Virus record (IMG/VR): IMGVR_UViG_3300036893_000002
Coordinates: 1 to 62,337 of that record
DNA length: 62,337 bases
Origin: a virus
Lineage: Duplodnaviria > Caudoviricetes
Reading direction: 5' to 3' (one strand)
Part shown: piece after piece, positions 15,287 to 56,095 of the stretch
Position numbering within the stretch: position 1 is the first letter of the stretch
How the letters are laid out: the number at the start of each line of letters is the position of its first letter
Translations under genes and position numbers: made by a program
The notes under the pieces: generated by a model
The model's input: the letters and a program-made list of their open reading frames with translations, nothing else
What the model was told of the DNA's origin: nothing
Database searches by the model: none

Positions 15287-15298
15287 CTGGTTAGTATA
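15287..15298 (-). promoter_or_regulatory. Conserved motif TATACTAACCAG (putative late promoter), copy 1
   Basis: Exact 12-mer, intergenic, about 20 bp upstream of the start at 15267. Confidence 0.7.
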
Positions 15299-15313
15299 GT
15301 CTTTTCTCTGCAC

Positions 15314-15940
15314 TTAAACAGATACCTTTTCTAACCCTAACTCAAAGTATTCTACACGTCCATAAATACCTTGATGAGGAGTCGCACTTCTTACCCTCCA
15401 AGATTCAGTTCTGGTAATAGGATAGTAGAGATTACCTTCTGGAGCTACCTTAAGTTCAAAGAGCTTATCTGGAGCTGGACGGGTAGGAATACCGTATCGT
15501 TCATAGTCTGGAATGTCATACCAATACATAAATGCCAAAGCCTTATCCGCATCTACTACACCAAAAGGAGCTAACTGACTCTGCTGAGATATTTGAGTAG
15601 AACTTCCTAATACTGAGCCGAAGTTTTTGGATATATAGACGAGTTTTTGCTGCTCAGTAAAAAGGTACCCTTCCCCATTACAATAAACACAGTTAGGATC
15701 TGGAGAACCTTGATTTGCATCAAAGCACTGACACTTAGTGTTAGATAACTTCCTATAGATAACTGGACGACCTATCCCAGCTTCCTCAAAATCACCCTGC
15801 ATTATACGGTCAAACCACTCCCTAAGGTCTATAGCAGTCATCTCAGGATACATATCTTGAGATGAACCAGTAACTACCTGACCTCCAGTTGGAGGCTGTT
15901 GGTAGTTAGCTGGTCCCTTATATATTATTTTCTGTCCCAT
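15314..15940 (-). CDS. Putative neck/head-closure protein with Cys cluster
   Basis: KCQC..CVYCNGEG motif; position before the tail terminator and sheath genes. Confidence 0.5.
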   Translation of the reverse strand: MGQKIIYKGPANYQQPPTGGQVVTGSSQDMYPEMTAIDLREWFDRIMQGDFEEAGIGRPVIYRKLSNTKCQCFDANQGSPDPNCVYCNGEGYLFTEQQKLVYISKNFGSVLGSSTQISQQSQLAPFGVVDADKALAFMYWYDIPDYERYGIPTRPAPDKLFELKVAPEGNLYYPITRTESWRVRSATPHQGIYGRVEYFELGLEKVSV

Positions 15941-17172
15941 TAGGCTGTAGTCTTGATACCAAATTCAGCTGCGTTTACACCTGATATTGTCCAGGCAGTT
16001 GTAGTATTTGGATCTACTTCAAAGAACCCTTGATAAGGAGTATAAGCATTTTCAGCTAAAGGAAAATCTGTACCATTATCAGCGACGGTCGTGCTACTCT
16101 TAGTAACCGATCTAATAGATCTGGTAGCAGAGTCGTCTTTCTGAGCTCGCATATTAACAGCAACTCCAAAAACTGAAGCTCCAGAAACAGCACCAAATGT
16201 ATATCTATCCTGATCACTTACAGTAGCATCAGATAGATAAGACTGGTTATCATCTGGTAAAGGTTCATTAATAAAGTTATAATTTGAAAGAGGTGCCTTT
16301 TGAATTAATGTCCAAGTAACGTGGTTATCTGTTGTTGTACTTCCCAAAGCACCTGTACTCCAGGTTGGAGGAGAAGAACCAGTTTTATCATCGCCAGTAA
16401 AGTTTGTTACCCTCTGGAGATTACCATTGGAGTCTATAATTTGTTGATCTGTAAACATAACTGTTGAAGCAACCCAAGAGGCAGCATTTTGTGTATAATT
16501 ATTAAGAGTACCATTACCCGTTGGAAAACTAGCTTGAATCTTAACATCACCTAAGTAAGTATTATTTACAGACCCTGATGTGTTCAACAAATACAAATCG
16601 TCGTAATATTCTACCTGTTCGGTACCATTGTTGAAAATTACACCCAACACCAACGCCGAGGCACTAGCATTTGATGTGGCTTTCGTATTCTGACCACTCA
16701 ATTGAATAATGTAGTTTCCATCCACCTTTAACTCAGCCACACCAGCACTACCATCTATTGTTACTTTAACTTCTAAGTAGTGCCATGTAGAAAAACTCAG
16801 AGCGTAGGATGTTTGAGATCCTAATAATGCAGAATAACCAGCTGCAAGACCACCACCACGGAAAAACTGAAAGTTTCCTGTTGAGGTAATTAACAAGCCA
16901 ATCTGACTTGTATTTCCATCCAAAAAACTAATTATAGGTGCCGATGCTACGGGAGAACCAGTCAACTGAAAAGCAAAGCCAGCTATTAAAGTTGTCTGGG
17001 CAGATATATTCTTTTGTAAACCAATGTTACCTCCGAATATCTTCAGAGCTGCAGAACCGTTTCTAACAATAGCCGATTGTATAGAAATCTGTGAGCCTAG
17101 TCCTAAGATAATATCGTATTTATCTAATACATTAAAATAATGATCAAACGAATCAACAAATAAAAGTGACAT
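15940..17172 (-). CDS. Virion lectin-like (ConA/LamG-type) protein with inserted carbohydrate-binding-like module
   Basis: DSFD..WHYLEVKVTID..YYDDLY..W....NAAEFG; full-length paralogue of 17184-18380. Confidence 0.55.
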   Translation of the reverse strand: MSLLFVDSFDHYFNVLDKYDIILGLGSQISIQSAIVRNGSAALKIFGGNIGLQKNISAQTTLIAGFAFQLTGSPVASAPIISFLDGNTSQIGLLITSTGNFQFFRGGGLAAGYSALLGSQTSYALSFSTWHYLEVKVTIDGSAGVAELKVDGNYIIQLSGQNTKATSNASASALVLGVIFNNGTEQVEYYDDLYLLNTSGSVNNTYLGDVKIQASFPTGNGTLNNYTQNAASWVASTVMFTDQQIIDSNGNLQRVTNFTGDDKTGSSPPTWSTGALGSTTTDNHVTWTLIQKAPLSNYNFINEPLPDDNQSYLSDATVSDQDRYTFGAVSGASVFGVAVNMRAQKDDSATRSIRSVTKSSTTVADNGTDFPLAENAYTPYQGFFEVDPNTTTAWTISGVNAAEFGIKTTA

Positions 17173-17183
17173 AATCTCTCCTA

Positions 17184-18380
17184 TTATCCACTTACCTTAA
17201 CGCCAAATTCAGCTGCGTTTAAGTTAGTAAGGCTCCACTGAGCACTTGTATGTGGGTCAGTTTCAAATGTAGCTGAGAAACCCTGGAAGCTGTTTTGAGT
17301 GAGGGTAAAATCTGTACCGTTATCTGTTGTAGTAGCTCCACTTTTTACAGCTGCTCTAATAAGTCTGGTACCGACGTCATCTTTCTCAGCCCTAATCTTA
17401 ACAGTTACTCCCCATACAGAACTACCTGTTGCTGCTGGATATAGGTATCTATCTATATCTCCAATTGAAGCATCACTTAGCCAAGCAGGAGTATCATTCG
17501 GAGTACCACTATTTACGAAGTTATAGTTAGATAACGGACTATCCTGTATACAAGTCCATACAGCACCACCATCATTTGTAGTCAAACCTACTGTAGCATT
17601 CCAGGTTGGGTGGCTACCACTCCCGCTGGTACCGTGAGTAGTACATCTCTGAAGGTTACCATTAGAGTCTACTATATCGGCTCCTAAAGCATAAGAAGTT
17701 GAAGCTGCCCAGCTGGCGGATACCTGAGTAAAGTTATTGGTAGTACCATTAGCATTAGGAAGTACACCCACAACCTTAGTATCTCCTAAGAATGTAGTAT
17801 AAGCTCCACCATTTGTGGGATCCATTACATATAAGTCGTCCATATAACCTGAATTACTAGCACCAGCTAATCCAGTCCATACAAGCTGATTGGCTGTGCT
17901 ATTAGAACTTACTCTGGTATTCTGAGAGCTCAAACTAATCTGCTGAACACCATCTACATAGAGCTGGCAAACTCCAGCTGAAGGATCAATCGTAACTTTG
18001 ACTTCAATGTAGTGCCAAGCATTAAAAGACATCATATAACTAGATAAAGATCCTAAGGCTACAGAACCACCCCTCCAAAATTGGAATTGTCCAACAGAAT
18101 TAATATCCAGTTCAACTTGATTAGTACTGGTATCTTCAAATCTTATTAAAGCTGTTTGGCCAGCACCAGTAAGGTAGAGAGCAAACCCAACTATATATGT
18201 AGCTCTAGAAGCAAATACTAAAGTAGCCCCTGCGAAAACACCTAAAGCTAAACTATATGCTCCATTTCTAGCATGGCTATTAGTAGTATAAGTGGTTACA
18301 GAAGTCCATGGCTGTGCCAGGGTACTATTCTGATTTCCATATAGGTCAAAAGAGTCTGTAAATAAAATTGAACTTGGCAT
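17184..18380 (-). CDS. Virion lectin-like protein, paralogue of 15940-17172
   Basis: Same architecture: WHYIEVKVTID, MDDLY, DSNGNLQRCT, NAAEFG. Confidence 0.55.
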   Translation of the reverse strand: MPSSILFTDSFDLYGNQNSTLAQPWTSVTTYTTNSHARNGAYSLALGVFAGATLVFASRATYIVGFALYLTGAGQTALIRFEDTSTNQVELDINSVGQFQFWRGGSVALGSLSSYMMSFNAWHYIEVKVTIDPSAGVCQLYVDGVQQISLSSQNTRVSSNSTANQLVWTGLAGASNSGYMDDLYVMDPTNGGAYTTFLGDTKVVGVLPNANGTTNNFTQVSASWAASTSYALGADIVDSNGNLQRCTTHGTSGSGSHPTWNATVGLTTNDGGAVWTCIQDSPLSNYNFVNSGTPNDTPAWLSDASIGDIDRYLYPAATGSSVWGVTVKIRAEKDDVGTRLIRAAVKSGATTTDNGTDFTLTQNSFQGFSATFETDPHTSAQWSLTNLNAAEFGVKVSG

Positions 18381-18395
18381 ATGTCCTCACTATCT

Positions 18396-18407
18396 CTGGT
18401 TAGTATA
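18396..18407 (-). promoter_or_regulatory. TATACTAACCAG motif, copy 2
   Basis: Exact 12-mer, intergenic, upstream of the start at 18380. Confidence 0.7.
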
Positions 18408-18412
18408 CTTAA

Positions 18413-19279
18413 TTACTGAACTGCTAATGTCTGTGGGTATAACTGCCCCATAACAGGTACAGAAGGAGTAAAAGCTGTACTCGCTAGATGGGTATTATTC
18501 CCCGTAAGGTTATTATTACCAATGGTTAGAATATGTTGACTTTCTATATAAGTATTGTTACCTGTAAAGTTATTGTTACCTGCTGTATAGGTTAATTGAG
18601 TAGCTGGAGTTACTGTATTATTAGAGATAGACACTAGAATCCCATGAGTGTCTGACCCACCATTGCTACAATTACCAACCATTTGCCAAGTTCCAGTAAA
18701 TGTAGTACTAAAAGTAAATAAAGCAGAGTTAATATTTACAGCGGAGCTATTATTAGCATATACCTGTGTTCCAGTACCAGCTCCAGAAATACCGACAGTC
18801 CAAGTACTAGAAGAGTTAGAAGGATTAAAGCATATCGCAAGAAATAAATCAGTTGAGTTTACAGTTGTAATATAGCCACTATAAAGTGCGTTCGCATAGT
18901 CTACATACCCAGATGCTCCGTCTAAAGCACCACTTGTAGGAGTTCCACTTAGCTCCAGAATATCAAGATTTATTTCCTCACCTATCGTAGATGTAACAGT
19001 AATTGTATTAGCTCCTGCGGCGCAGTTCTGAAAACCCCAAACTGTAACTTGTGAATTGCCTCCACCATTAGTTCCTTCAGGACCCTGAATTATCTGTGAA
19101 TAAGTCTGTGTCTGACTATCAGCTACAGAGAGCACACCAAGAGCGGTTGCCTTATTTACACTGGCAATAGCAACTAACATATTACCAGCAGTATTATTAC
19201 TGGTAAAAGTAGCAGCTGCGGAAGTCATTGAACTACTTGTAGCTGCTGTATTCTTATATTGGACAACAGCTACTGCCAT
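18413..19279 (-). CDS. Ser/Thr/Asn-rich beta-rich virion protein
   Basis: Composition and location in the fibre/decoration cluster. Confidence 0.45.
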   Translation of the reverse strand: MAVAVVQYKNTAATSSSMTSAAATFTSNNTAGNMLVAIASVNKATALGVLSVADSQTQTYSQIIQGPEGTNGGGNSQVTVWGFQNCAAGANTITVTSTIGEEINLDILELSGTPTSGALDGASGYVDYANALYSGYITTVNSTDLFLAICFNPSNSSSTWTVGISGAGTGTQVYANNSSAVNINSALFTFSTTFTGTWQMVGNCSNGGSDTHGILVSISNNTVTPATQLTYTAGNNNFTGNNTYIESQHILTIGNNNLTGNNTHLASTAFTPSVPVMGQLYPQTLAVQ

Positions 19280-20383
19280 TTATTCATACCTCATTAAACA
19301 AGCACCAGACTCTTCTCTTTGATATAAAGAACCTGTATTAGCTAAATATCCTACTTTAGAAGCAATGTAGTTATGATTACTACCGTATATTGAAATGGTC
19401 AGCTGGGCCCCTTCTGCAACATCATATGCACAAGCAGCAGCAAAACCTAACATAGGATTACCTAAATAACCTATTAAAGGAAATACAGGGCAGGCTGCCG
19501 TTGAACCATTAAAATTACCGGTGGTTGGTGATATAGAAGTAGTTACAAAACATAACCAAGCAAACTCTCTAGGAGTAGCCAATCCATTATAATAAGTCTG
19601 TTGAAACCATGTATTATTATTAGTTGGGGAAAAGCCAACTAAAAGAGAGAAATAAGAAGTAGTGTTATTACCACTTGTATCCTTACTACGCTCAACACCA
19701 AAAACGTTACAATAGTTAGTAGCACCTTGCCACATCATAAATCTTATTTCACCAGCATTGCCAGAAGCATAACAAGGTATTAAAGTACCACCATTATTAT
19801 TTTGGTTAGTAGCAGAAGTAGTAATTTGACCACCACTACTATTACCTGTCATTGTACCTGTACCATTAGTAGAAGTACCAGTATTTATATCTATAGCAAC
19901 AGCTGAAGAAGAGTAACCGTAACTCATCTTTATATAGATAGGAGTAGTACTAGCATAAGAATCTGTAGCCTGCCAGATTTCATAGTTAGCAACATAGCTT
20001 GATGATGGCAAAGAGGTAATTTTAGTTACTACTCCAGTTGACCCTGATTCAGCCACAGCAGAGGCATTAACTACAGTAAAGGTAGTTCCTGTAAAAGAGG
20101 TAATAACAAATGTCCCATTATTAGCTGAATGAGTCATACCTGTGATGTTTAAAGCTCGGCCATTGGCGAGAGCCAGCCCAGTAAGAGAGTTATATGTATA
20201 AATTCCATTACTACCTGATACAGATACAGCTGTTAGGTTCATACCAGACCACATAACTTGACCAGTATCATTAGTCTGAACCCATCCAAAAGTCTGAAAT
20301 GCAATGGACATAAATGTAGACCAAGATACATAGTTAGCTAAGGTTGAGTTATCTGCTGGGCAGTTTGCTGTATATGTTGCCAT
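19280..20383 (-). CDS. Virion fibre/decoration protein with inserted small beta module (ANNGTF)
   Basis: Composition; module shared with 27686-28408. Confidence 0.45.
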   Translation of the reverse strand: MATYTANCPADNSTLANYVSWSTFMSIAFQTFGWVQTNDTGQVMWSGMNLTAVSVSGSNGIYTYNSLTGLALANGRALNITGMTHSANNGTFVITSFTGTTFTVVNASAVAESGSTGVVTKITSLPSSSYVANYEIWQATDSYASTTPIYIKMSYGYSSSAVAIDINTGTSTNGTGTMTGNSSGGQITTSATNQNNNGGTLIPCYASGNAGEIRFMMWQGATNYCNVFGVERSKDTSGNNTTSYFSLLVGFSPTNNNTWFQQTYYNGLATPREFAWLCFVTTSISPTTGNFNGSTAACPVFPLIGYLGNPMLGFAAACAYDVAEGAQLTISIYGSNHNYIASKVGYLANTGSLYQREESGACLMRYE

Positions 20384-20392
20384 TTTTTATCC

Positions 20393-21637
20393 TTATAATG
20401 TACGTCTAAACCAATCACAACTTACTAATGAAGGTCCATTACCACTTTCTAAGTCTAATCCAACACCTACTCTAGTTGGACCAGAGGTAAACCAAGCTGT
20501 TCTGCTCTCTTGGTACATTAAAAGAAAATTATGTCCATCATTAGAACAATAGTAATATAAATTAGTACCATCATCTTTGATACTTAAGTAAGCGGGAATA
20601 CTAATATTATAGGTATAACTTGGTTCGCTAGAATAGGATGTCGGACTGTTATAACGAAGTACTCCACAGTTCAGATATCCTGCACCATTTCCCATACTGA
20701 CTATAGCCATTTTTCCAGAGCTATCACTAATAACTAAACCTGAATTGCAATAATTCTGAGCTAAATGCATTGGACACCACTGAATTACGATTTGCCATGG
20801 TGTTCCAGGAGCAGCCTTATAAATATAAGACCAGCTAATACCACTATGGGCTGGAGTTGAAATACATAATAAACTATTAGCTACAGTTGCTGTAGTACTG
20901 CCTTGGTTTACCCAAGTCCAAGAACCAGACAAAGAAGAACCAGAAAATTCATCATCTACAGAACCTGCTGTAATAGGTAGTATATCAGGACTATGATATA
21001 GACTTGGTATAGCTATAGCATTTGGTAGATTATTAGTATCATAAGCCCCAAGTATATATTGATCAGTACTAGGAGTTCCTGTAGCCCCAGTAGGAACGAA
21101 AGTAAAAGTAATTGTTACAGCCTGGGATGTATCTAAGTTAGTAATCTGGTAATATATCATAGTAGATATACTAACATCAGCATTAAACCCAGGAGCTATA
21201 GGGCTCATAACCCAAGTAACTGGGAAAGAACCAGAAGTAACTTGAACATCACAACATAATCCATTCTGTGTATAAGCAGTTGGTAAAGTGCCCCAGGCTC
21301 TGGCAGCATCTGAAGCTTGGAAAGCAGCCGTAGAATAAAGCTCTACTCTTGCTTTGCAGGAGAAAGTTATTTCTAACAGATCAAAAGCATTAGCTATAGA
21401 TACAGATCCAGTAGCAATAGCATTAGTAGCCAGAGTACCTGTCGTAACTGAATTCGTACTTCTACCCGTTACAGATCCTGCGTTATTATCCCACTTACTT
21501 GTAGCAGAGTTATAGACTAATAGTTGCCCATTAGCTGGAGAGGAAATAGCTACGTCTGTAAGTCCAGCTAAAGTACTGGAACCCCCACTACCACCAGCCC
21601 CAACATTTTCAATAGAAGTTCCTGAAGGAGTAAGCAT
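20393..21637 (-). CDS. Fibre protein with C-terminal ConA-like lectin domain
   Basis: LAGLTDVAISSPANGQLLVYNSATSKW fibre motif; DDEFSGSSLSGSWTWVN opens a lectin-like domain. Confidence 0.55.
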   Translation of the reverse strand: MLTPSGTSIENVGAGGSGGSSTLAGLTDVAISSPANGQLLVYNSATSKWDNNAGSVTGRSTNSVTTGTLATNAIATGSVSIANAFDLLEITFSCKARVELYSTAAFQASDAARAWGTLPTAYTQNGLCCDVQVTSGSFPVTWVMSPIAPGFNADVSISTMIYYQITNLDTSQAVTITFTFVPTGATGTPSTDQYILGAYDTNNLPNAIAIPSLYHSPDILPITAGSVDDEFSGSSLSGSWTWVNQGSTTATVANSLLCISTPAHSGISWSYIYKAAPGTPWQIVIQWCPMHLAQNYCNSGLVISDSSGKMAIVSMGNGAGYLNCGVLRYNSPTSYSSEPSYTYNISIPAYLSIKDDGTNLYYYCSNDGHNFLLMYQESRTAWFTSGPTRVGVGLDLESGNGPSLVSCDWFRRTL

Positions 21638-21638
21638 A

Positions 21639-23225
21639 TTATGTTAACTCCGTTACTACAACAGTTCCTGTACTGGCTGAAATAGCATTAATAGCACCCT
21701 TCCACACATCAGTAACAAAACTACCACCAGTTCCATCATTAGCTGAGCTACAAGCTTTAAGAACAACCGCATAAGCTGTTATAGTAGGAGTTTGACCCAA
21801 CCCAAGGAATACAACAGTAGTCCCTGTATTAATAACTATAGCTTCTCGCCGTGCTGTATTTGATGCTAAGATAGAAGCACTACTAGAAGTTACAGATGTA
21901 GCAGCTGGGGAACTACTCGTAACTGAAGTAGGGGTTGTAACTACTAAAGCGGGATCTGTTGCTAAAGCAGAAGTACTGGCTGACTTAATAGTAGCCATAT
22001 TGGATTGTATAGTTGCATCTCGTAAAGCTATACCATTACCAATATAAGTTGTTGCTTCATTGATTGATTCAACAACTCTTACAGTAGCCGTGCCAGTCCA
22101 AGCAGCAGTAGATCTAATTCTAACATTAGTAAATCCAGCTGCGCTTCCTTGCCCTGTAAAGTTATTTGTAAATGAAGATGTTGAGTAGCTAGTCCCTGTT
22201 TGGTGAATTCCTTGTGCAATCCAAGTACTAGAATCAGGAGACCATTCTACAACAAGTGTGCCCGTCCAAGTTCCTGTAACAAGAAAGCGTACAGTATTAT
22301 ATCCAGTAGATAATGCAAAAGCCGCAGTTGACCCAGCTGTTGGAGTTCCTGTAATAAAAACTTGACTATTAGCATAGGTGTTTGTTACAGAATTTGTATC
22401 TTGGGCAGTTATATTTACAGTAGATGGGGAGGTATCATTAATTGTACCTAATCCTATATTCCAAGTTCCTGACTGAGTAACGCCACCAATTGTATTAGAA
22501 CCAGATGGTAGAGCGGGCAAGGTAGCTAAAGATACAGGTTGTGTAACTTGATAAAACGTGCCAGAAACAGGCAATGGATTACTAGCGGAAACACCTACAA
22601 GATTACCACCACTATTAAAACCAGTATATCCAGCATTAGCTGGGACAGCAGAGCCTGTGAGTCCTGCTGCTGTATTACCTGAAATAGAACCAGCAGCAAT
22701 GTTAATCTTTAGATATCCATTAGAGTCTACTTGAATAGCAGCTTGCTGTTGATTAGTAAGAGTTATAGGGGTTGTATTATACTGACCACCTATAAGTAAA
22801 GATTTGGAAGCAACAGTATTTGGAATAACAGGGCCAGAAGCATCAGTTGAAACTGTACCATTAACTGTAGTAAGAGGTGCTGTATCAACTATAACGTGAC
22901 CTATAACATTAGTACCTGAAGGTAATGCTGGTAATGTAGCAATCGTTACAGCTACAGCAGAGTTAGTGATATTAACATTCTGAGTACTTGGGAAGTTAGA
23001 GACAGAAACACTTCCCTGTATGTAACCAGGATGACCAGAGGTTAAAAGTATATTAGTACCGTCTGTAATTTCTACCGAGGCTGGGAAATTACCAACACTT
23101 ACTGTTCCTGTAACAGTAACTGTCCCATCTATAAGATGATGTGGAGTATGAACTCCCGCAGTCTGAGTAGTTATTAGAGTTTGTACTGCGCTATTACTAT
23201 CTAATATAGTTATATTATTTGGCAT
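21639..23225 (-). CDS. Thr/Ser-rich fibre protein
   Basis: Internal repeats VSVGNFPA/VSVSNFPS and ATLPALPSG(T/S)N(V/T)IG twice. Confidence 0.5.
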   Translation of the reverse strand: MPNNITILDSNSAVQTLITTQTAGVHTPHHLIDGTVTVTGTVSVGNFPASVEITDGTNILLTSGHPGYIQGSVSVSNFPSTQNVNITNSAVAVTIATLPALPSGTNVIGHVIVDTAPLTTVNGTVSTDASGPVIPNTVASKSLLIGGQYNTTPITLTNQQQAAIQVDSNGYLKINIAAGSISGNTAAGLTGSAVPANAGYTGFNSGGNLVGVSASNPLPVSGTFYQVTQPVSLATLPALPSGSNTIGGVTQSGTWNIGLGTINDTSPSTVNITAQDTNSVTNTYANSQVFITGTPTAGSTAAFALSTGYNTVRFLVTGTWTGTLVVEWSPDSSTWIAQGIHQTGTSYSTSSFTNNFTGQGSAAGFTNVRIRSTAAWTGTATVRVVESINEATTYIGNGIALRDATIQSNMATIKSASTSALATDPALVVTTPTSVTSSSPAATSVTSSSASILASNTARREAIVINTGTTVVFLGLGQTPTITAYAVVLKACSSANDGTGGSFVTDVWKGAINAISASTGTVVVTELT

Positions 23226-26578: not shown

Positions 26579-26627
26579 ACACTTCTCCGTTTAATTATTG
26601 GAATTCTATAATTCTCACTCCTTCAGT

Positions 26628-27335: not shown

Positions 27336-27345
27336 TTTTTCCTCT

Positions 27346-27681: not shown

Positions 27682-27685
27682 TGGT

Positions 27686-28408: not shown

Positions 28409-28411
28409 TTA

Positions 28412-28582: not shown

Positions 28583-28584
28583 AT

Positions 28585-29004: not shown

Positions 29005-29013
29005 ATTAGTCTC

Positions 29014-44044: not shown

Positions 44045-44046
44045 AA

Positions 44047-46496: not shown

Positions 46497-46504
46497 TTAA
46501 CTTC

Positions 46505-46816
46505 TTATACAATATGATATGTAAATGTTACACCCACGCTTACACCAGTTGACAACACAATATCAAGGGCTTCACCTTGATTAGTTACACACCAACCATC
46601 TGGATGAAATGGAATGGTTACAGTACCATTAGTTGGTAGATAAATAGTACCTGTTATAGCTTCAGCACTAGTATGAGTCTGTAAATAGACATTTACAGCA
46701 CCTGCTGCACTGACTACCATAGACATAACTTTAATAACTTTATTTTCAACTAGAGGAGCTATTGTATTAGCTCCAGAACTAGAGACGGTAGCGCATCCTT
46801 GTATGATCTCAGACAT
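46505..46816 (-). CDS. Small beta-rich protein (decoration-like)
   Basis: 103 aa with all-beta pattern; AAGGAG RBS. Confidence 0.45.
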   Translation of the reverse strand: MSEIIQGCATVSSSGANTIAPLVENKVIKVMSMVVSAAGAVNVYLQTHTSAEAITGTIYLPTNGTVTIPFHPDGWCVTNQGEALDIVLSTGVSVGVTFTYHIV

Positions 46817-46825
46817 TGAATCTCC

Positions 46826-47605: not shown

Positions 47606-47608
47606 TTG

Positions 47609-48939: not shown

Positions 48940-49694
48940 TATAGTCCATGAGCTCTATTATGAAGACCTAATACAATATCTCCTGATGCATTCATAGCAG
49001 TAACTCTATCTTTCATAGACTCACTTCCAGGTTGATATCCTATTCCCATTGGAGTCATATTACCAACTGCAGTTGCTTCTACTGGGTCATTATTTCCTAA
49101 TATGGCCGATGCCATTACAGGAATTCCCGCAGCTGTTATCAAAGCAGCACTCTTAGCTCCAGGAAAGGCACCTAACTTCTCATATGATTTATAGGTGCTC
49201 ATAATAGGACCACTAAAATAACCTATACCAGCTCCAGCAATAGCACCTTGCATTTTATGACCATCAGGAGCAATTAGAGCACCAGCCCCAGCTCCTAATA
49301 AACCTAACATATGAGGTTTAGATAACATCTGGTAAGCAGCATTAGGAATACCAGTAGGTATATCCTTACCAAACATCTTGAAAGTTTTAAAGCTCTTATC
49401 AGCCGCCCACAAAGATTTAAACTTATTAACTTTCATCTCAGCTGCCTTTCTTAGACCAAAGGCACCACTCTGAGCTACTCTACCACCAGCTCTTATAGCT
49501 GCTGAAGCTCCTAATCCACCTAAACCACCTAAGAAGATACCTTTACCAAACTTAGACTCCATAGACTCATCAGGATCTCCAGCTACCATTTGATAGCCAG
49601 CTCCTAAAGCCATCCCACCCAGAAGTCTACCTCTCCATGGAGTTGCCTCCACACCCTTAGCAACCATAGAGAATAAGTCGTAAATCCCAGCCAT
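48939..49694 (-). CDS. Glycine-zipper-like membrane-active protein
   Basis: Several GxxxG segments (GGLGGLGASA, GLLGAGAGA, GAIAGAGIG). Confidence 0.5.
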   Translation of the reverse strand: MAGIYDLFSMVAKGVEATPWRGRLLGGMALGAGYQMVAGDPDESMESKFGKGIFLGGLGGLGASAAIRAGGRVAQSGAFGLRKAAEMKVNKFKSLWAADKSFKTFKMFGKDIPTGIPNAAYQMLSKPHMLGLLGAGAGALIAPDGHKMQGAIAGAGIGYFSGPIMSTYKSYEKLGAFPGAKSAALITAAGIPVMASAILGNNDPVEATAVGNMTPMGIGYQPGSESMKDRVTAMNASGDIVLGLHNRAHGL

Positions 49695-50092
49695 TAGAAT
49701 AAGCTCTTAACTAAGTTCCTCATCATTCCAGCTTTAGCCGTACCAGCCCTTCTCATAGCATTTGCCATAGGACGTGGATTACGCATCATATTACCAGCAA
49801 GAGTTTTCATCCCTGGCCCATATTTACTGGCTGCAGATGCCCCATATATACCACCGATTGCGGCAGCATTCCATGCTAGCCCAGTTCCCCAAGCTCCTAC
49901 AAGAGAACGCCCTACACCCTTTCCTTCACGCCTATCTTGTCTATAAGTATGAATTTGATGAGCAGTACCTCCAATTGCAAAAGCTGCCGCACCGGCCATG
50001 AGTGCTATATTAGGATCAATTTTACCAGGTAGTGTCTTCATATAATTCATAGCAACACTAGATCTCATTTTTGTAAAGAATGCCATAGTCAC
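49694..50092 (-). CDS. Small basic Gly/Ala-rich protein
   Basis: Two hydrophobic GxxxG segments; GAGGTG RBS. Confidence 0.5.
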   Translation of the reverse strand: MTMAFFTKMRSSVAMNYMKTLPGKIDPNIALMAGAAAFAIGGTAHQIHTYRQDRREGKGVGRSLVGAWGTGLAWNAAAIGGIYGASAASKYGPGMKTLAGNMMRNPRPMANAMRRAGTAKAGMMRNLVKSLF

Positions 50093-50111
50093 ACCTCTAG
50101 TTAATTCAAAT

Positions 50112-50123
50112 CTGGTTAGTATA
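50112..50123 (-). promoter_or_regulatory. TATACTAACCAG motif, copy 5
   Basis: Exact 12-mer, intergenic. Confidence 0.7.
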
Positions 50124-50130
50124 GAATAAG

Positions 50131-51129
50131 TTATAGAGCCGAAGACATTCTTTTTGAACCATGGGCAGGGTTTTTCATACTTCTATTTTGAGTGGAGGTG
50201 TTACTATTACCTTGACCTTTACGCATTATTGATAATCCTATAACACTACCTAAAGCTGCTACAGCAGCCACAGGACCTAAAGTAGCCATTCTAAGCTCGT
50301 TCTCTACACTCATCATCGAAGAAGAAAAACCTTTACGTCCTAGTTTAGAACGTCTCATATTTACTTGTTCTATTAAACTAGCTGAAGCTTGTCTACTTGT
50401 CTTGACTCCAGCAACTTCCGCCCTTTCTAACCATTTAGGATCACCCATGTTTGACCAAGCCAGTCTTTCAGATTCAATAGACAAAGGACCTCGTTTTGGA
50501 CCCATTGCTTTAGCATTTTCATTATATAGATTCAACATATTTTCAGCTACAGGTTTAGAATGTTTCTTATTAAATATTTCTCCTAATGAGGGGGTTTTAG
50601 CTATTTCGGATTTGATAAAAGAATTATCTTTATTAGCATAATGAGCTGCATGAATACGTTCATGAGTTACACCACTAAGATTGAATGGATTACCTCCAAC
50701 CCATCCTATCAACCATCGGTTATAGACTACTGGATCAACACCAGTAAACTTAGCATGAATAATTGCTGGTGAAACTTTACTATATGTTTTGGTTGCTACT
50801 TCTCTTGACATCATATTTGTAGCTTTATTAAAATGTGCTTTTATATGCGATGGTTCTAACTGTTTTTCATGTAACGGACCAAATGATCCTTCACGTTTTG
50901 CATAACGAGATATTCTCTTTAAACTAGATTCAGTTGGTACTGCTCCTTTACTAGCCATATAAAGTATCATCTTTAAAGCACGTGAGTCTTGTACTAATCC
51001 CCCGCCAGCCATATAACCCATTGGTCCAAACATACCAATCATTTCTTTGAAGCCAACTACAGCTTCACCACGAGAGGCTAAGACAGCATCAGATAAGTTT
51101 GGTTTAAAAAAAGGATTTGAATTATTCAT
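50131..51129 (-). CDS. Basic hypothetical protein with HERIH (HExxH) motif and C-terminal hydrophobic helix
   Basis: VTHERIHAAH; LGPVAAVAALGSVIGLSIM. Confidence 0.5.
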   Translation of the reverse strand: MNNSNPFFKPNLSDAVLASRGEAVVGFKEMIGMFGPMGYMAGGGLVQDSRALKMILYMASKGAVPTESSLKRISRYAKREGSFGPLHEKQLEPSHIKAHFNKATNMMSREVATKTYSKVSPAIIHAKFTGVDPVVYNRWLIGWVGGNPFNLSGVTHERIHAAHYANKDNSFIKSEIAKTPSLGEIFNKKHSKPVAENMLNLYNENAKAMGPKRGPLSIESERLAWSNMGDPKWLERAEVAGVKTSRQASASLIEQVNMRRSKLGRKGFSSSMMSVENELRMATLGPVAAVAALGSVIGLSIMRKGQGNSNTSTQNRSMKNPAHGSKRMSSAL

Positions 51130-51134
51130 AAATT

Positions 51135-51158
51135 AGAAAGGGTAGCCTGAGCTACCCT
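51135..51158 (-). terminator. Possible terminator
   Basis: Minus strand AGGGTAGC-TCAG-GCTACCCT then TTCT; a second hairpin CCTGTCC/GGACAGG lies at 51178-51195. Confidence 0.5.
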
Positions 51159-51203
51159 ATTTGAAGGTACAGCTAATCCTGTCCTTTTGGACAGGTGGGG
51201 AAA

Positions 51204-51953
51204 TTATACTTCGATGTCAGCTATTGCATTTCTTACTTGGTCAGCTATAGCAGACTGACGAGTGCTTAGATCGTTACCATTCTTACCTTGATAAGCTTTG
51301 AGTTTTCTTGTCTTGGCTTTTTCAGTCTTTTCCATATCATCAAGTTTCATTCTTCTGGCTGTACGGATTTCCTGAATAATCTCTTGATTGGCATGAACCT
51401 TCTGTTCATAAGATAAAGCCTCACCTGTCTGTAAATCAACTTCTTTTACTGATAGATCAGTCATTGAAGCAGCTTTACCTTCAGCCATAATCAGAGTGCA
51501 TCTACGTTCCTGGACGTCCATAACAACTAGTTCTGCTATATCTGATTTCTCTGTTGCTGTAAGATCTGCTATACCTTTACCAAGATCCTTAGTCCAGTCT
51601 ACGAACTTCTCGGATACATAGTCAGATTCTATAGGACAAATATCACCAATAGGGGCTTTATGCATCTCAAAAAGAGGGCAAGTGCCTGCTACAGGACAAT
51701 GCTCACCAGCACACTTCATAGGAGCTGAAGCAGCGACTCCTAATACATTCTGGGCCTGCTTATAAATATCCATCTTCTGCTGTTCTACTTCTGTTAGCTC
51801 GATTTTCTTATTCTGAAGTAGAAAGTTAAGCAGTTTCTGTGGTGTAGTAACATCTATAACAGCTATATTAGAAACGGGAGGAGCAGGTGCCACTTCGGGG
51901 ATTGAAGTAGCACCTACTGGTTCAGGCGATGAGCTCTTTGGCTTCTTAGGCAT
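51204..51953 (-). CDS. Cys-cluster coiled-coil protein (terminase small subunit candidate)
   Basis: C-x4-C-x5-C...CPIE followed by helical region; upstream of terL. Function is inferred only. Confidence 0.3.
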   Translation of the reverse strand: MPKKPKSSSPEPVGATSIPEVAPAPPVSNIAVIDVTTPQKLLNFLLQNKKIELTEVEQQKMDIYKQAQNVLGVAASAPMKCAGEHCPVAGTCPLFEMHKAPIGDICPIESDYVSEKFVDWTKDLGKGIADLTATEKSDIAELVVMDVQERRCTLIMAEGKAASMTDLSVKEVDLQTGEALSYEQKVHANQEIIQEIRTARRMKLDDMEKTEKAKTRKLKAYQGKNGNDLSTRQSAIADQVRNAIADIEV

Positions 51954-52616
51954 TTAAACCTCTCTATCTTCGGAAGAATCCTTAATTTCAATGGCAGTTA
52001 ATTCTGCCGCTTGTTCTTCCTCTGTAGGGGGCTTAGTAATATGTTTTATAACAGCTGCCTCTAATTCTAAATCTTTAACTATAATCTTCTTAATAAGTAT
52101 ACCATCATTTGTCGATTCTATAATAACCTTACCACCTTTGATAGCGTGAGTACCAGTCTTTTCTTCAAGTAGTTCCAATAATCTTTCTAAATCTGGATCA
52201 GTAACTACAGGGGAATAATTTGCCCACTGATAATTAGGAACATTGACGATAGAAGGAGCAATAGGAACATTCCAAGTACCGCTAACATAAGTAGGGTCTC
52301 CTATATATCCAGAAGTGCCTGTAGTAATAGTACCTGTAGTAATAGCATTGTTATATAACATACCTGAACCCGCAGTATTAACCATTAGATTACCATTTGA
52401 ATCTGTAATTGAAGGTATAGTCCCTGTTGTTATATTACTATCGGCTAAATTAGATGTGCTATGAAAATTAGTCTGTGCAACAGGAACCTGAGCTCCCTGA
52501 AAACTCGTACATACTGTATCGTTTTCTCCTGGCACCCATTTCTCCTCAGTGACGACCGCTTTTTTAATTCTCTGTGCTGCTGTAGTAAAAGACCAAATTG
52601 AATTCTGCCCAGTCAT
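51954..52616 (-). CDS. Hypothetical protein
   Basis: 220-aa ORF with a Thr-rich middle. Confidence 0.5.
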   Translation of the reverse strand: MTGQNSIWSFTTAAQRIKKAVVTEEKWVPGENDTVCTSFQGAQVPVAQTNFHSTSNLADSNITTGTIPSITDSNGNLMVNTAGSGMLYNNAITTGTITTGTSGYIGDPTYVSGTWNVPIAPSIVNVPNYQWANYSPVVTDPDLERLLELLEEKTGTHAIKGGKVIIESTNDGILIKKIIVKDLELEAAVIKHITKPPTEEEQAAELTAIEIKDSSEDREV

Positions 52617-53110
52617 TATACTTCTCCTAATAAAGTAGTCTGTTGATTAATAGATTCACCCAAGAAATCCTTTATTGAGCGAGCCACAATTGGATGAGGG
52701 AATACTTGTGGTCTCTTTAATACTATCTGTTCTACTGCTTGATCCCAAGTACAATGAGTCTTAAACATTAAATAAGCAGCTACTATACTTGTAGACCGAG
52801 AAATTCCAGCGTGGCAATGAACAATGATTTTCTCATTATTCTTTACAGCTGTATCTATACATAAAATACCAAATACAATATTATCAGGATGTATTGGATA
52901 TCCATCCCAAATACTAATTTGATTAATTATAAAATCCTTATCAGAAAGAACAGTATGTATTTCATCCGTACAATTAAGTATATGCTTTATACCTTCTGGG
53001 TTTTTATACGCCAGGGAAGCCGCAGCTCCAAAGGTGCCAATATAAATACAATCGGTAATCTGATCTATTGGATTAGCACCAATACTAATCATACTATAAG
53101 GATTCGTCAT
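52616..53110 (-). CDS. Dual-specificity protein phosphatase
   Basis: IYIG..GIKHILNC..D..VHCHAGISRS (CX5R)..AYLM..KRP. Confidence 0.9.
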   Translation of the reverse strand: MTNPYSMISIGANPIDQITDCIYIGTFGAAASLAYKNPEGIKHILNCTDEIHTVLSDKDFIINQISIWDGYPIHPDNIVFGILCIDTAVKNNEKIIVHCHAGISRSTSIVAAYLMFKTHCTWDQAVEQIVLKRPQVFPHPIVARSIKDFLGESINQQTTLLGEV

Positions 53111-53799
53111 ACTGGAAACTCCATTAGGGACTGTAACATAATATCATGAATCATCTGTCTCTCTTCCATTGACCAATAATCCCAGGCAATAGAAAAGTTA
53201 TAACCTGGTCTTAGAGAATGTAATGTCACTCTAACAGGATTAGTAGGGTCTCCTGATAATACCATAACTAAAGAAGACAATGTCTTAATCCAGGACTGAA
53301 AGATATCTACATCATATACATTAACATTTAGATAAAATCTAGTACTACCTTGTTCCCTTAGCTCTCTTTTTCTGGCCCTGAAATACATATCTGGTAAAAG
53401 ACCCCTTACAAAGGCCATATCTAATCTACCCAATTCCCCATAGACATTCTCACCCGTCCTATAAGGATATAAAACAGAAGCCTCACCTTCTGGCCTATCA
53501 AGAGGATGTCCAGAACAATACTCAGTAGACTTCATCCATATTCTATTATTAACTTCGTGTAATAGACTAATACCAGCCTGATCTATTGTAGACCAGTCTA
53601 TATTTTCTGGCCGCCCAAAAGGGAACTCCGGATCAATACTTACTTCTTGCTGGGCTCCAGGTATTTCTGAAGCAGGAACTCCAACAAATTCGGCCATAGT
53701 CTCCTGCCCTTCGGCATTGTCTCCCAAGTTCTCCATTTTAATCGATACCTCGGCAGCGGCCGGGCCAGAGATGATAGGTAAACCTTTATCATTTGACAC
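53107..53799 (-). CDS. Hypothetical protein
   Basis: 230-aa ORF in the operon. Confidence 0.55.
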   Translation of the reverse strand: MSNDKGLPIISGPAAAEVSIKMENLGDNAEGQETMAEFVGVPASEIPGAQQEVSIDPEFPFGRPENIDWSTIDQAGISLLHEVNNRIWMKSTEYCSGHPLDRPEGEASVLYPYRTGENVYGELGRLDMAFVRGLLPDMYFRARKRELREQGSTRFYLNVNVYDVDIFQSWIKTLSSLVMVLSGDPTNPVRVTLHSLRPGYNFSIAWDYWSMEERQMIHDIMLQSLMEFPV

Positions 53800-53989
53800 T
53801 TATACCTCTCACTGGTCCCCAAGCCATAGGCGGACCTGTTAGGATGGCTAATAAATTTGGCATTAATCTTCGTGGATGTTCATGAATCATATCTCGTACA
53901 CAATCCCACTCAGAAGAATCACTCCAAGTTCTCCAAGACAACCTATATCTCTTAGGAGGTCTATCTTCGTCCTTATATGAATAACTCAT
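53789..53989 (-). CDS. Small hypothetical protein
   Basis: 66 aa, fills a gap, preceded by a promoter-like sequence. Confidence 0.45.
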   Translation of the reverse strand: MSYSYKDEDRPPKRYRLSWRTWSDSSEWDCVRDMIHEHPRRLMPNLLAILTGPPMAWGPVRGISVK

Positions 53990-53995
53990 AAGTTA

Positions 53996-54024
53996 ATAAT
54001 ACCATAAATTGTAAGAAGCACCAA
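53996..54024 (-). promoter_or_regulatory. Sigma70-like promoter with extended -10
   Basis: TTGGTG-17 nt-TATTAT with TGn, 6 nt before the ATG at 53989. Confidence 0.35.
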
Positions 54025-54513
54025 CTATGATAGGTAAGCACTTATATATCGGTTAGGCCAGAAGGTATTTACAGCGGGTTTACAAGCAGCTATAGCAGAC
54101 TTAGTTAACTCTGGTTTACTATTTACAATACAATGAAGGTAGGCTACGAGGGATATATCACTTGGATTAGTATACTTCTCATCTATAGACTTAATAGCTA
54201 ATGCCAGCATATGACCTATAATAAACACCGACACAGCTCTATCTTTCTTACAATACTCAATCAATTCCTGGATCTGGGGAGTCTCATCAAGGATTTTACG
54301 CAGCATATCTATCCCACTTGCTAATCCACAAGTGACGGTAAATTCAATAGATTCAATGTGATCAATACAGGTCCTTAGCATTACCAAAGCCCTGCGGAGA
54401 TCTCCTTCAATGTCCCTTTCTCCATAGATCCCAGAAGCACACGATCCAGAGTATGAGCAAGGTAAGACATCCGCCAAGGTAAAGTTGTGAAGCTTCGTCA
54501 AGTCTGAAGACAT
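54025..54513 (-). CDS. Hypothetical protein
   Basis: 162-aa ORF. Confidence 0.5.
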   Translation of the reverse strand: MSSDLTKLHNFTLADVLPCSYSGSCASGIYGERDIEGDLRRALVMLRTCIDHIESIEFTVTCGLASGIDMLRKILDETPQIQELIEYCKKDRAVSVFIIGHMLALAIKSIDEKYTNPSDISLVAYLHCIVNSKPELTKSAIAACKPAVNTFWPNRYISAYLS

Positions 54514-54516
54514 ACA

Positions 54517-54837
54517 TTATACAAGTCGTTCTTCTGAGTCATCATCTAAGTTAATAGAATCTAGAGTTCTATTATACTTTAAGTTATGACTCTGACAAAC
54601 AAGACCACTACCATACATACCATCCCAGTCATCACTACTTAATTGAACGTGACACTGAAGATGTTCCCTTAACCATTCGAATTCCTGTTCAGTTATATCT
54701 TTATAACACTGATCATTTATATAAGGCAGATCTGTCATTTCATTATATCTATAGACAGCATAGACAGAAGTCGGCTCCAGGAATCCCACCCGCACGCAGA
54801 ACTTCTCTGTCCCATAAATAAATAGAAATACAGGCAT
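54517..54837 (-). CDS. Hypothetical protein
   Basis: 106-aa ORF with GGAG RBS. Confidence 0.5.
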   Translation of the reverse strand: MPVFLFIYGTEKFCVRVGFLEPTSVYAVYRYNEMTDLPYINDQCYKDITEQEFEWLREHLQCHVQLSSDDWDGMYGSGLVCQSHNLKYNRTLDSINLDDDSEERLV

Positions 54838-54922
54838 TTAAAAGCATTCTCCGCCCCGCAATTTTAAAATTCATTTTCCTAAGTCTAAGATAATCAATAA
54901 CTTAGTATGTAATATTTACACA

Positions 54923-55531
54923 CTAAACATCTCTTTCCTCTCCCATAATAGCATCAATTTCGGCTTTAACAGAAGAAGTTTCTAAGAAGATGTTCTTGTC
55001 AGCAGTTGAAAAGACCTCTTTATTGATCCCAGTGACTGGCTTCATAGCCTTAGCATGGGTCTGGCACGCAATAGAAGGGAATATGGGACACGCAAGGTCT
55101 ATCCAAGCCACTATGGGACATTCTCCGTGATCTTTCAGGAAAACGGCCTGGGACTCCAATATACGATGCTTAGAATGAGCTTCATAGTTAGGCTTATGGC
55201 CGTTTTCATACTCTGTTACCCAAGCTCCCACGGTAATGGGTATATGGCCAAGAGTCTTATTACTGGGTATCAATAGATAGAATTCCTCAGGCCCTAACGG
55301 ATCTACATCAAGGGAAGGATTAGAAGCTGAAAGATAACCAATAGGGCCAAGGATAAGATTAGAGTGTGGCATAAGAGCTTTTATTGCTGCGGCAAGAGCC
55401 ATTTGATGATTAGTCAAGCCAAGTCCTTCTGGAATAATTTCGTCAAAGATAACAGTTTGGTGTGTCTTAGGGTCAGTAAATACTGTCTTTCCATTTTCAT
55501 GGATTAGTTTACCTGGTTCCTTTTCTTCCAT
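54923..55531 (-). CDS. Hypothetical protein
   Basis: 202-aa ORF with AGGAG RBS. Confidence 0.55.
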   Translation of the reverse strand: MEEKEPGKLIHENGKTVFTDPKTHQTVIFDEIIPEGLGLTNHQMALAAAIKALMPHSNLILGPIGYLSASNPSLDVDPLGPEEFYLLIPSNKTLGHIPITVGAWVTEYENGHKPNYEAHSKHRILESQAVFLKDHGECPIVAWIDLACPIFPSIACQTHAKAMKPVTGINKEVFSTADKNIFLETSSVKAEIDAIMGEERDV

Positions 55532-55543
55532 TTATTATCTCCT

Positions 55544-56017
55544 CTATATTTCCCTCTCTTCGCTTTCATCATACATATTTACAGCTTCTTCTGTCCTGAA
55601 GAGAATAGGTTCAGGAGAGTGATCAAGTATTGCATTATAGCGTTGGACAACATATCCAGGAGGAACAGCAGGGAAAGACGGATGGGCTAATAGGACACAT
55701 ATACAATATGTGTCATCGTCTTGGAATACCCTTGTAGGAAGAGAATCGGCTGGTATGTCAGGTGGAAGATACAACTGAGTACTACCTGTCATTATACCTA
55801 GTAATTCTGGAATAGGGATTACAAGTATCTTTTCCTGGCGGCCGTTTGCTCCATTGCTGAACAAGAATGCAGAGCTGGGCTGTGAGTTCTCCATTAACTT
55901 GGAAACAACAGCCTTAAGTTTATCTGAAGGACTTGTAAGTGAACTTGCAGGAGGGTAGATAGGCATACCATTCCAAAAGTCTTTGGAATCAGTAGTATCA
56001 CTCATAATTACCTCCAA
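55544..56017 (-). CDS. Hypothetical protein (probable start MSDTT at 56005)
   Basis: GGAGG RBS precedes the internal Met; first gene of the leftward block. Confidence 0.55.
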   Translation of the reverse strand: MEVIMSDTTDSKDFWNGMPIYPPASSLTSPSDKLKAVVSKLMENSQPSSAFLFSNGANGRQEKILVIPIPELLGIMTGSTQLYLPPDIPADSLPTRVFQDDDTYCICVLLAHPSFPAVPPGYVVQRYNAILDHSPEPILFRTEEAVNMYDESEEREI

Positions 56018-56083
56018 GTATATAAAAGGCTTACATGCGAGAGCTAATTTCTTTTCAAGTCGATTCGATTTTATTGTATACGA

Positions 56084-56095
56084 CTGGTTAGTATA
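56084..56095 (-). promoter_or_regulatory. TATACTAACCAG motif, copy 6 (head of leftward block)
   Basis: Exact 12-mer in the divergent intergenic region. Confidence 0.7.

Follow-up and report, generated by a model that had tools for sequence, protein, structure and literature searches.

A sharply bounded 12-bp word ahead of virion genes as a putative middle/late promoter of an uncultured jumbo myophage family

A 62,337-bp stretch of DNA from an uncultured phage (IMG/VR record IMGVR_UViG_3300036893_000002; the entire available record of this genome, referred to below as the window) carries six exact copies of a 12-bp word, TATACTAACCAG, every one of them on the minus strand. Together with related sites in other genomes the copies define a family, TATACTA(A/G)(C/T)CAG, which we lean towards regarding as a middle/late-class promoter of an uncultured jumbo myophage family. 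That the word is a promoter of some kind is highly probable. The more specific reading, which we favour with moderate confidence, is that it is a phage-specific middle/late promoter read by a single-chain two-barrel RNA polymerase (RNAP) encoded by the phage itself at 57653-60607.

The word was the most repeated 12-mer of the window, the next unrelated 12-mers having three occurrences each. Dinucleotide shuffles (n = 100) contained a mean of 0.02 copies and none reached six, while 0.013 copies were expected from base composition, in agreement with the initial annotation, which had put the expectation far below one in 62 kb. When up to two mismatches were allowed, 18 matches were found, a number not above chance (shuffle mean 10.1; 2 of 100 shuffles reached 18), and the signal is therefore the exact word. 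Five of the six copies lie outside open reading frames (ORFs); given a non-coding share of 4.2% in the ORF map made here, the binomial probability of at least five out of six is 8e-7. Four of these copies occupy 29-46 bp gaps between minus-strand ORFs, in which the preceding stop codon is located 5-15 nt upstream of the word and the next start codon 10-25 nt downstream. The fifth is found in a divergent region of 241 bp, flanked by the first leftward gene, which has its ATG at 56005 and a GGAGG box, and by a small ORF at 56247 pointing rightward; the sixth lies within the 3' part of the portal gene. An exact search thus reproduced the six positions and the common strand reported in the initial annotation, along with its assignment of five copies to intergenic DNA and of one to the portal 3' end (about 160 nt before the portal stop codon). 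The copy at 50112 heads a unit holding the large terminase and portal genes, and the portal-internal copy at 40427 precedes the start of ORF 38109-40193 by 233 nt, with the major capsid gene farther downstream. The genes behind the portal copy had been described as protease and capsid genes, of which the capsid assignment stood (Table 1) and the protease label found no supporting match: ORFs 38109-40193 and 36627-38105 had no Pfam match, and in PHROGs the former matched a family of unknown function only and the latter nothing. Terminator scans found no terminator beside any copy.

Relatives of the portal protein were found on 19 viral contigs, among them G001, a 215,395-bp record rated complete, and the window is syntenic with positions 108.7-166.8 kb of G001 (protein identities from 30% to 92%). 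G001 carries eleven exact copies of TATACTAATCAG, which has T at position 9, and C is not found at that position in any of its exact matches to TATACTAAYCAG. All copies thus share a single letter change, the pattern to be expected of many sites under one common reader. G001 has three strand blocks, with rightward genes up to about 74 kb, leftward genes between 77 and 162 kb and rightward genes beyond, and the orientation of the copies follows the local genes in all eleven cases (five plus-strand copies in plus blocks, six minus-strand copies in the minus block), so that co-orientation with genes holds for 17 of 17 copies over both genomes (6 in the window, 11 in G001). Eight of the eleven are not fully inside a called ORF (non-coding share 8.4%; P = 3e-7), seven have a start codon 10-31 nt downstream, and one stops 8 nt short of the 5' end of a transfer RNA (tRNA) gene, tRNA-Gly(gcc), which lies in an array of 25 predicted tRNA genes plus a transfer-messenger RNA (tmRNA) gene. 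A purely translational signal is ruled out by this last copy, and the word therefore acts on transcription or on RNA. Orthologous pairs (window/G001) were recognised at 15287/125213, where both genomes have a similar leader, at 40427/140746, at 50112/156277, where the site is kept though the upstream flanking window gene (50131-51129) has no G001 homologue, and at 56084/162119. The copy at 30404 has no G001 counterpart, its adjoining gene being missing from G001, and the copy at 18396 adjoins genes that are likewise missing there. Shuffle statistics and the comparison with G001 together exclude chance or a coding artefact as the origin of the word. Besides virion genes, a primase-helicase gene and tRNA genes are found behind G001 copies, and the class is therefore middle/late rather than strictly late; an earlier view of the word as a late-gene signal held for the virion genes, but not in its strict form.

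The pattern TATACTARYCAG had seven matches in the window against 0.06 expected. A variant, TATACTAGCCAG, is found at 4370, inside ORF 3617-7864 and ahead of ORF 1-3519, and probably belongs to the family as its seventh member; G001 has TATACTAGTCAG at the orthologous site, with T at position 9 as elsewhere in that lineage. A near-copy at 25092 (with others at 24960 and 25026, at a spacing of 66 nt) was rejected as part of coding tandem repeats in ORF 23225-26578. Another at 35440 was also rejected, being located on the plus strand, antisense in the capsid gene, with first letters that vary among relatives.

The copy inside the portal gene allowed selection on the DNA to be separated from selection on the protein. 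Of the 19 portal loci, 18 reach this point, and all 18 have the word (seven in the C form, ten in the T form and one as TATACTAACCAT). Codons were compared between the window and 13 of the 18 loci, giving 12 distinct sequences; loci L002, L004, L006, L008 and L015, whose flanks are the same as those of L001, were left out. At the copy, the codons are TAT in 12 of 12 sequences, ACT in 12 of 12, AAC or AAT, and CAG for 11 of 11 glutamines, while nearby conserved residues use mixed codons (tyrosine TAC 6 and TAT 5; threonine ACT 3, ACA 4 and ACG 5; glutamine CAG 5 and CAA 6). In L019 the word is exact although the portal protein is only 50% identical and the flanks differ throughout. Synonymous codons frozen in this way show that selection acts on the DNA word as such, in addition to the protein; the constraint fits a promoter and a site of RNA processing alike.

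The anatomy of the word was derived from 17 exact sites (the six of the window and the eleven of G001). Eleven positions carried 2 bits of information each and position 9 carried 1.06 bits; on either side of the 12 bp the content fell to background, giving the word sharp boundaries. Weak preferences were seen upstream (C directly before the word in 11 of 17 sites, and C or T three bases farther up), and directly behind the word no base is conserved, 11 of 17 sites having a purine there. The family consensus is TATACTA(A/G)(C/T)CA(G/C/T), natural variation being found at position 8 (A or G), position 9 (C or T) and position 12 (G, C or T); at the head of the leftward gene block, for example, relative L048 has the form with G at position 8 and T at position 9, and relative L056 has TATACTAACCAC. 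The hexamer TATACT agrees with TATAAT at five of six positions in all copies. A -35 hexamer at a spacing of 16-18 bp was not found (mean best match 2.29, against 2.47 at control positions, with 1 of 17 sites scoring at least 4), and the TGn extension of a -10 element precedes only 3 of the 17 copies. Because the -35/TG feature was looked for and is absent, the word is not a member of the strict sigma-70 promoter family. The 29-46 bp gaps leave no non-coding space for upstream elements. On the other side of the word, a ribosome-binding site follows directly in several copies, such as CAG-gagagataaa-ATG at 30404 and CAG-aggaggtag-ATG in G001. Since a start after the word would put this ribosome-binding site at the extreme 5' end of the RNA, we consider a start inside the invariant AACCAG more likely. 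The original proposal of a promoter made up of a -10-like TATACT and an invariant AACCAG, with no -35 box, used by a phage RNAP or a phage-modified host enzyme, thus gains support from the orientation, placement and conservation of the copies, from the frozen codons and from the absence of -35 and TG elements.

The 984-aa protein encoded at 57653-60607 had been put forward as a phage RNAP, and its fold and the Pfam matches of its family bear this out in the sense of a two-barrel RNAP homologue. The protein itself had no significant Pfam match (only Myosin_N, E 0.00059, below the cut-off), nothing was found in PHROGs or among PDB sequences (phmmer), and a tblastn search against 50,697 phage records gave no match. 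It has 48 metagenome relatives of about 950-1,000 aa, a few of which were pre-annotated with Pfam RdRP, and its cluster also occurs on a 105-kb contig. RdRP (PF05183) matched 6 of 25 family members (best 1.5e-10). In the 25-member alignment, RQPNAHR and GGGDQDD are invariant or nearly so, with D472, D474 and D475 of the latter (residues 469-476) invariant in 25 of 25; we take these motifs to resemble the RxPxxH and metal-loop motifs of cellular RNA polymerase large subunits. An AlphaFold (AF2) model was obtained with a mean predicted local distance difference test score (pLDDT) of 85 and a predicted template-modelling score (pTM) of 0.79. With Foldseek, this model matched Neurospora QDE-1 (E 1e-15 over about 950 columns) and also plant RDR2, followed among phage proteins by P32 gp64 RNAP (5e-8), P74 gp62 (9e-8) and crAss-like phi14:2 gp66 (4e-4), and after the phage RNAPs by bacterial beta' chains. 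Given the fold match and the RdRP domain in 6 of 25 members, the protein is, as modelled, a single-chain two-barrel RNA polymerase of the QDE-1/YonO branch. A Pfam scan of G001 covered 161 of its 291 called ORFs, namely those of at least 130 aa (122 shorter ORFs and 8 crossing piece boundaries were left out); it found DNA polymerase, primase, RecA, clamp-loader-like and nucleotide-metabolism genes, and no multisubunit or T7-type RNAP among the 161.

The polymerase gene is located 1.6 kb from the copy at the head of the leftward block (56084), on the opposite strand, and in seven distinct relatives (G001, L048, L049, L052, L053, L056 and L057) a copy or near-variant is likewise present on the opposite strand 1.4-2.8 kb upstream of the RNAP gene. 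In relative L050 no copy was found in the 2.9 kb upstream of this gene; this stretch probably stops short of the late block's head, given that plus-strand ORFs run almost to the end of the locus. The rightward block that contains the polymerase gene has no copy on its own strand, either in the window or in G001, which fits a product made before the class that it turns on. The proximity of gene and copy in relatives, the copy-free block, the lack of multisubunit or T7-type RNAPs among the 161 G001 ORFs scanned and the precedents of YonO and P23-45 (see below) are the grounds for taking the phage polymerase as the reader. We infer an RNA start at the word, the polymerase at 57653-60607 as its reader, and an order of expression in which the rightward, word-free block would be transcribed first and yield the polymerase. 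The polymerase, alone or with a phage helper, would then recognise the 12-bp word on duplex DNA, and RNA would start at or within a few nt of its 3' edge and run leftward. The outcome would be seven nested transcription units of roughly 3-12 kb each, the portal-internal copy adding transcription of the capsid-assembly genes. A stronger version, in which the polymerase recognises the word alone, with neither a sigma nor any other factor, and starts inside AACCAG, is possible but distinctly tentative. Were it correct, all middle/late RNAs of the family would begin with the same letters, a QDE-1/YonO-type DNA-dependent RNA polymerase would for the first time have a defined promoter, and the enzyme would be a minimal, self-sufficient and promoter-specific relative of cellular RNA polymerases. 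How such minimal single-chain relatives find promoters is a largely open question, and the locus offers a matched pair for addressing it, a sharply bounded 12-bp word with natural variants and a polymerase family with dozens of diverged members. Such a pair could show whether a two-barrel enzyme is promoter-specific without a sigma factor, and could be developed into an orthogonal expression system of compact size. In annotation, the word serves as a marker of operon boundaries in an uncultured family of peat jumbo phages.

Six listed runs are metatranscriptomes available as assembled contigs only, and such contigs cannot show transcription starts; three RNA runs and one DNA run were compared over window positions 37101-57100. 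In RNA run X3, positions 37101-40409 are covered by a 6,489-nt contig with a mean word depth of 60.9, whose end falls 18 nt downstream of the final base of the portal copy; upstream of that copy, the next contig in the list (40568-41009) has a depth of 5.5. In the same run, a contig at 54961-56064 (depth 13.6) ends 20 nt downstream of the head-of-block copy, and there is no loose end at either of these contig ends (40409 and 56064). In DNA run X4, depth was similar on both sides of 40427 (3.3 and 5.3), and a contig at 55167-56141 bridges the copy at 56084. The nearest contig of RNA run X9 ends at 40323. Positions 56444-57100 are without a contig in all three RNA runs and coverage over 40436-42436 is thin, but gaps in contig data carry no evidential weight. 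The X3 contig ends are consistent with an RNA start at or near the 3' edge of the word, and can be taken as a weak hint in that direction. No terminator-like site was found at the calculated far end of the 6,489-nt contig (about 33921).

A number of results weigh against a promoter read by the phage polymerase. A contig of RNA run X8 (40114-40454) crosses the portal copy, and the RNA support at each of the two places comes from one study only. A profile of the polymerase family found nothing significant in PDB (hmmsearch, best E 0.5), and the alignment with YonO by hhalign was not significant either (E 0.21), the aligned stretch being the catalytic barrel. The acidic loop has the spacing DxDD and not DxDGD (YonO has DNDGD), a non-canonical form, so that activity is deduced from conservation; a DxDxD signature is given for the metal-binding aspartate triad in the account of two-barrel polymerases consulted (PMC7824862). 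In phage SPbeta, the home of YonO, a link to the word was rejected: with up to three mismatches, 84 matches were found in positions 40001-90000 of NC_001884 against 101 expected, and the gap upstream of yonK held two weak matches, at chance level. Phage 0305phi8-36 is listed in the same account as having a YonO-like enzyme (PMC7824862), and the first 50 kb of its 218,948 bp contained no comparable word and no 12-mer occurring more than three times. The top word in those 50 kb is in coding sequence, and the intergenic gaps have hairpins and no shared word. Moreover, TATACT comes close to the consensus of the bacterial -10 hexamer, a conserved protein with sigma region 4 is encoded by G001 and related genomes, and the RNAPs of the family are 40-61% identical, yet the word barely changes. 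Pairs of T7-type polymerases and promoters usually show less constancy than this.

These points bear on another reading, in which the promoter is used by the multisubunit RNAP of the host, redirected by a sigma-like or activator protein of the phage, and for which the protein of about 378 aa encoded in G001 is a candidate; we consider it rather improbable, though the most substantial of the rivals. In that case the -10 element would be TATACT and RNA would start immediately behind the word, as at T4-type late promoters without a -35 box; in sigma-70 geometry a start 7 nt after the hexamer would indeed fall just past the word. The candidate (G001 60152-61288, 378 aa; locus L036 152-1288) matched Pfam Sigma70_r4 (1.2e-6, 28.4 bits against a cut-off of 24.1) and the PHROG 'RNA polymerase sigma factor' (8.6e-4). 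Its model (pLDDT 76) has a MarR-like winged helix at residues 137-216 and a sigma domain 4 at 295-365, and its C-terminus superposes on domain 4 of SigD (3vfz) with a VIA Z of 7.8 and a root-mean-square deviation (rmsd) of 1.9 A over 60 residues. The whole chain compared only weakly with sigma-70, sigma-S and sigma-28 (VIA Z 7.4-7.8, rmsd 13-18 A, Foldseek E 0.02-0.3), and the Z values are within the range that the tool calls common. The constancy of the word across diverged RNAPs would fit a more conserved reader, and the sigma-like protein, which has 45 relatives and is 59-72% identical on the other large contigs of the family, is slightly more conserved; on the same contigs, at 72% and 59% against 61% and 51% for the RNAP, the two rates are too similar to tell which protein reads the word. 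Region 4, however, binds -35 boxes, and no -35 box is present at the copies, while sigma region 2, which reads the -10 element, had no Pfam match in the candidate even at E 10 (best Foldseek E 0.02). Promoters read by sigma factors do not typically have six invariant bases behind the hexamer. The G001 gene for the sigma-like protein is located 10 kb downstream of a same-strand copy and contains a further copy in its final codons, which makes it look like a product of the promoter class and not its reader; the copy in the final codons would drive the next gene. The sigma-like gene was not found in the 62-kb fragment that makes up the window (best tblastn E 2.7).

A role of the word in RNA, as an endoribonuclease site or a stabilising 5' element that splits polycistronic transcripts, would fit the strand specificity, the intergenic placement, the site adjacent to a tRNA gene and the step in RNA depth at 40427 as well. 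It is nevertheless improbable, in that a promoter is needed at the head of the whole leftward block, where the copy at 56084 (G001 162119) lies and no other repeated element was found; the first six letters are a classic TATA-type hexamer for DNA melting, and an invariant, unstructured single-stranded RNA site of 12 nt would be unusual. Least probable, by our estimate to a degree that makes it very unlikely, is a DNA site with no part in initiation (an operator, a packaging or replication signal, a Chi-like site or the target of a homing endonuclease). Such a site would account for a repeated exact word kept in relatives, but the word is not palindromic, is spaced every 3-12 kb without clustering, invariably points in gene direction, through three strand switches in G001, and mostly lies 10-31 nt before gene starts. 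This orientation and spacing would not be expected of pac or cos sites, origins or operators, and a Chi-like site would not be limited to the 4-8% of the sequence that is non-coding. A promoter read by the phage polymerase is the reading favoured here.

The positions of the copies and of the genes named in the text are collected in Table 1.

Table 1. Copies of the 12-bp word and other features of the window
Feature	Position	Strand	Context or basis
Copy heading the leftward virion block	56084..56095	minus	Divergent region 56006-56246, 78 nt before ATG at 56005
Copy	50112..50123	minus	38-bp gap, 19-25 nt before start of ORF 49694-50092
Copy	40427..40438	minus	3' part of portal ORF, ~160 nt before its stop
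Copy	30404..30415	minus	29-bp gap, 10 nt before ATG of ORF 29782-30393
Copy	18396..18407	minus	32-bp gap, 15 nt before ATG of ORF 17184-18380
Copy	15287..15298	minus	46-bp gap, 19 nt before ATG of ORF 14575-15267, then tail sheath gene
Likely seventh copy, variant TATACTAGCCAG	4370..4381	minus	Inside ORF 3617-7864, ahead of ORF 1-3519
984-aa single-chain two-barrel RNA polymerase homologue	57653..60607	plus	Fold and family Pfam RdRP
Leftward block, virion and packaging genes	1..56005	minus	Syntenic with G001 108.7-161.4 kb
Large terminase	44457-46496	minus	Pfam/PHROGs
Portal	40268-42421	minus	Pfam/PHROGs
Major capsid	34952-36316	minus	PHROG major head protein, 1.7e-16
Virion structural protein	14575-15267	minus	PHROGs
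Tail sheath	12334-14547	minus	Pfam/PHROGs

Judged by its virion gene content, a distant match to jumbo myophage terminases and its synteny with the complete 215-kb G001, the window is a fragment of an uncultured jumbo myophage. It had no near relative among the 50,697 phage records; its large terminase is 26-30% identical to those of jumbo myophages, Bacillus phage 0305phi8-36 being the closest cultured relative by this gene (26% identity). The sequencing runs that contain the window sequence are labelled as peat and rhizosphere metagenomes. The content of guanine plus cytosine is 41% in the window and 51% in G001, and the identity between the two is very uneven, with 92% for the major capsid protein and 41% for the polymerase. 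A block of about 12 kb (15940-28585), which has its own copy of the word at 18396, is mostly missing from G001; it holds a pair of phrog_2448 paralogues and an ORF of 1,117 aa rich in repeats, among them coding repeats of 66 nt, and is probably a variable module for host recognition or decoration. ORF 3617-7864 (1,415 aa) has a REase_MTES_1575/DUF559 endonuclease domain at residues 577-670, and as its best G001 match spans residues 686-1415 only, this domain may be an inserted module. The window itself has no tRNA or tmRNA genes; those of G001 form one rightward array (L036 3610-13483, G001 63.6-73.5 kb), with a tmRNA tag AEFEELPLAA.

The flanks of the head-of-block copy are conserved within lineages (window 56006-56246 and 55980-56083; L044 8169, L052 6239, L057 6829 and L053 7159). 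G001, L052 and L057 share a ACCTACTCGCCGAT-like box 12-30 nt upstream of the copy and a leader, GGACTT..CACAACGACGCAAAGACCCAAGGGGTCTGG, that contains a small hairpin, in place of which the window and L053 share CTCGCRTGTAAGC. These conserved flanks may be a leader RNA or a regulatory site; in SPbeta, the YonO start is said to precede an unannotated non-coding RNA (PMC5467207). L046, a 136-kb contig with an RNAP relative of 23% identity, was rejected as a carrier of the word, as it has no copy. At 16775-20200 of this contig, six genes in a row are preceded by AACCCAAAAC with a CAGGAGGT-like ribosome-binding box behind it; this AACCCAAAAC is an extended ribosome-binding leader and a different phenomenon from the word. 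At 1700-1980 of L046, ACCCTTTAGG occurs five times within 300 bp on both strands, in an iteron-like arrangement.

A literature search for the exact word and its variants gave no phage-related use by title (the matches concerned soybean, rice and an ion channel), nor was any paper defining a YonO-type promoter found in the literature search, supplements being outside its scope. Among classical systems, T7-type late promoters are near-identical copies of a phage-specific word that lacks a -35 box and precedes late units; their conserved part may extend to or beyond the start, and the promoter is about 23 bp long. The conserved part is 12 bp in the present case, and T7 RNAP, a member of the Pol I-like right-hand family, is unrelated to two-barrel polymerases, for which reason the word is not a T7-type promoter. 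The T4 late promoter, TATAAATA, is an 8-bp AT-rich, -10-like element without a -35 box, read by the host core enzyme with gp55 and gp33. The word differs from it in the six further invariant letters that follow the hexamer and in that a phage polymerase is encoded.

Jumbo phages of the phiKZ and AR9 type are described as using multisubunit non-virion RNAPs and short late-promoter motifs without a -35 box (PMC7598289, PMC12809450). The phage studied here resembles them as a jumbo phage with its own two-barrel polymerase and a short motif lacking a -35 box, and differs in that the beta/beta' homologues are split in those phages, with none found among the 161 G001 ORFs scanned. YonO-type enzymes did not come up in a term search of a 2026 review of jumbo phages (PMC13282480). 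Two single-chain two-barrel RNAPs are described for Thermus phage P23-45, the virion enzyme gp96 with an AT-rich motif and the non-virion enzyme gp64 with a GC-rich motif, both motifs being upstream of mapped starts; the enzymes serve pre-early and early/middle genes, while late genes use the host RNAP (PMC10770324). The likeness lies in a phage single-chain two-barrel polymerase tied to a conserved DNA motif of its own (here a predicted pair), and structures of homologues of the P23-45 type, P32 gp64 and P74 gp62, are among the fold matches of the window protein. On the other hand, the word serves virion genes, the P23-45 motifs are unrelated in sequence as far as they are described, and the fold of the window enzyme is much closer to QDE-1/RDR (E 1e-15) than to gp64; starts have been mapped for P23-45, whereas the word is known from sequence comparison.

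YonO of the Bacillus prophage SPbeta is described as an RNAP with a single chain of about 100 kDa, whose relationship to cellular RNAPs is confined to the two barrels; its gene adjoins the late operon, and the enzyme transcribes the SPbeta late genes, which are those for structure and lysis (PMC5467207). According to the main account of the enzyme, it drives one operon from one start, the sequence of its promoter being left undetermined there (PMC5467207). The window enzyme is likewise a large single-chain two-barrel polymerase encoded next to late genes; it differs in having DQDD in place of the DNDGD of YonO, and a sequence relationship between the two is not demonstrable. The closest studied cases are therefore YonO, for the late genes, and gp64 and gp96 of P23-45, for mapped promoters and early genes. 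By analogy with such systems, the word appears to behave like the invariant promoters of phage-encoded polymerases.

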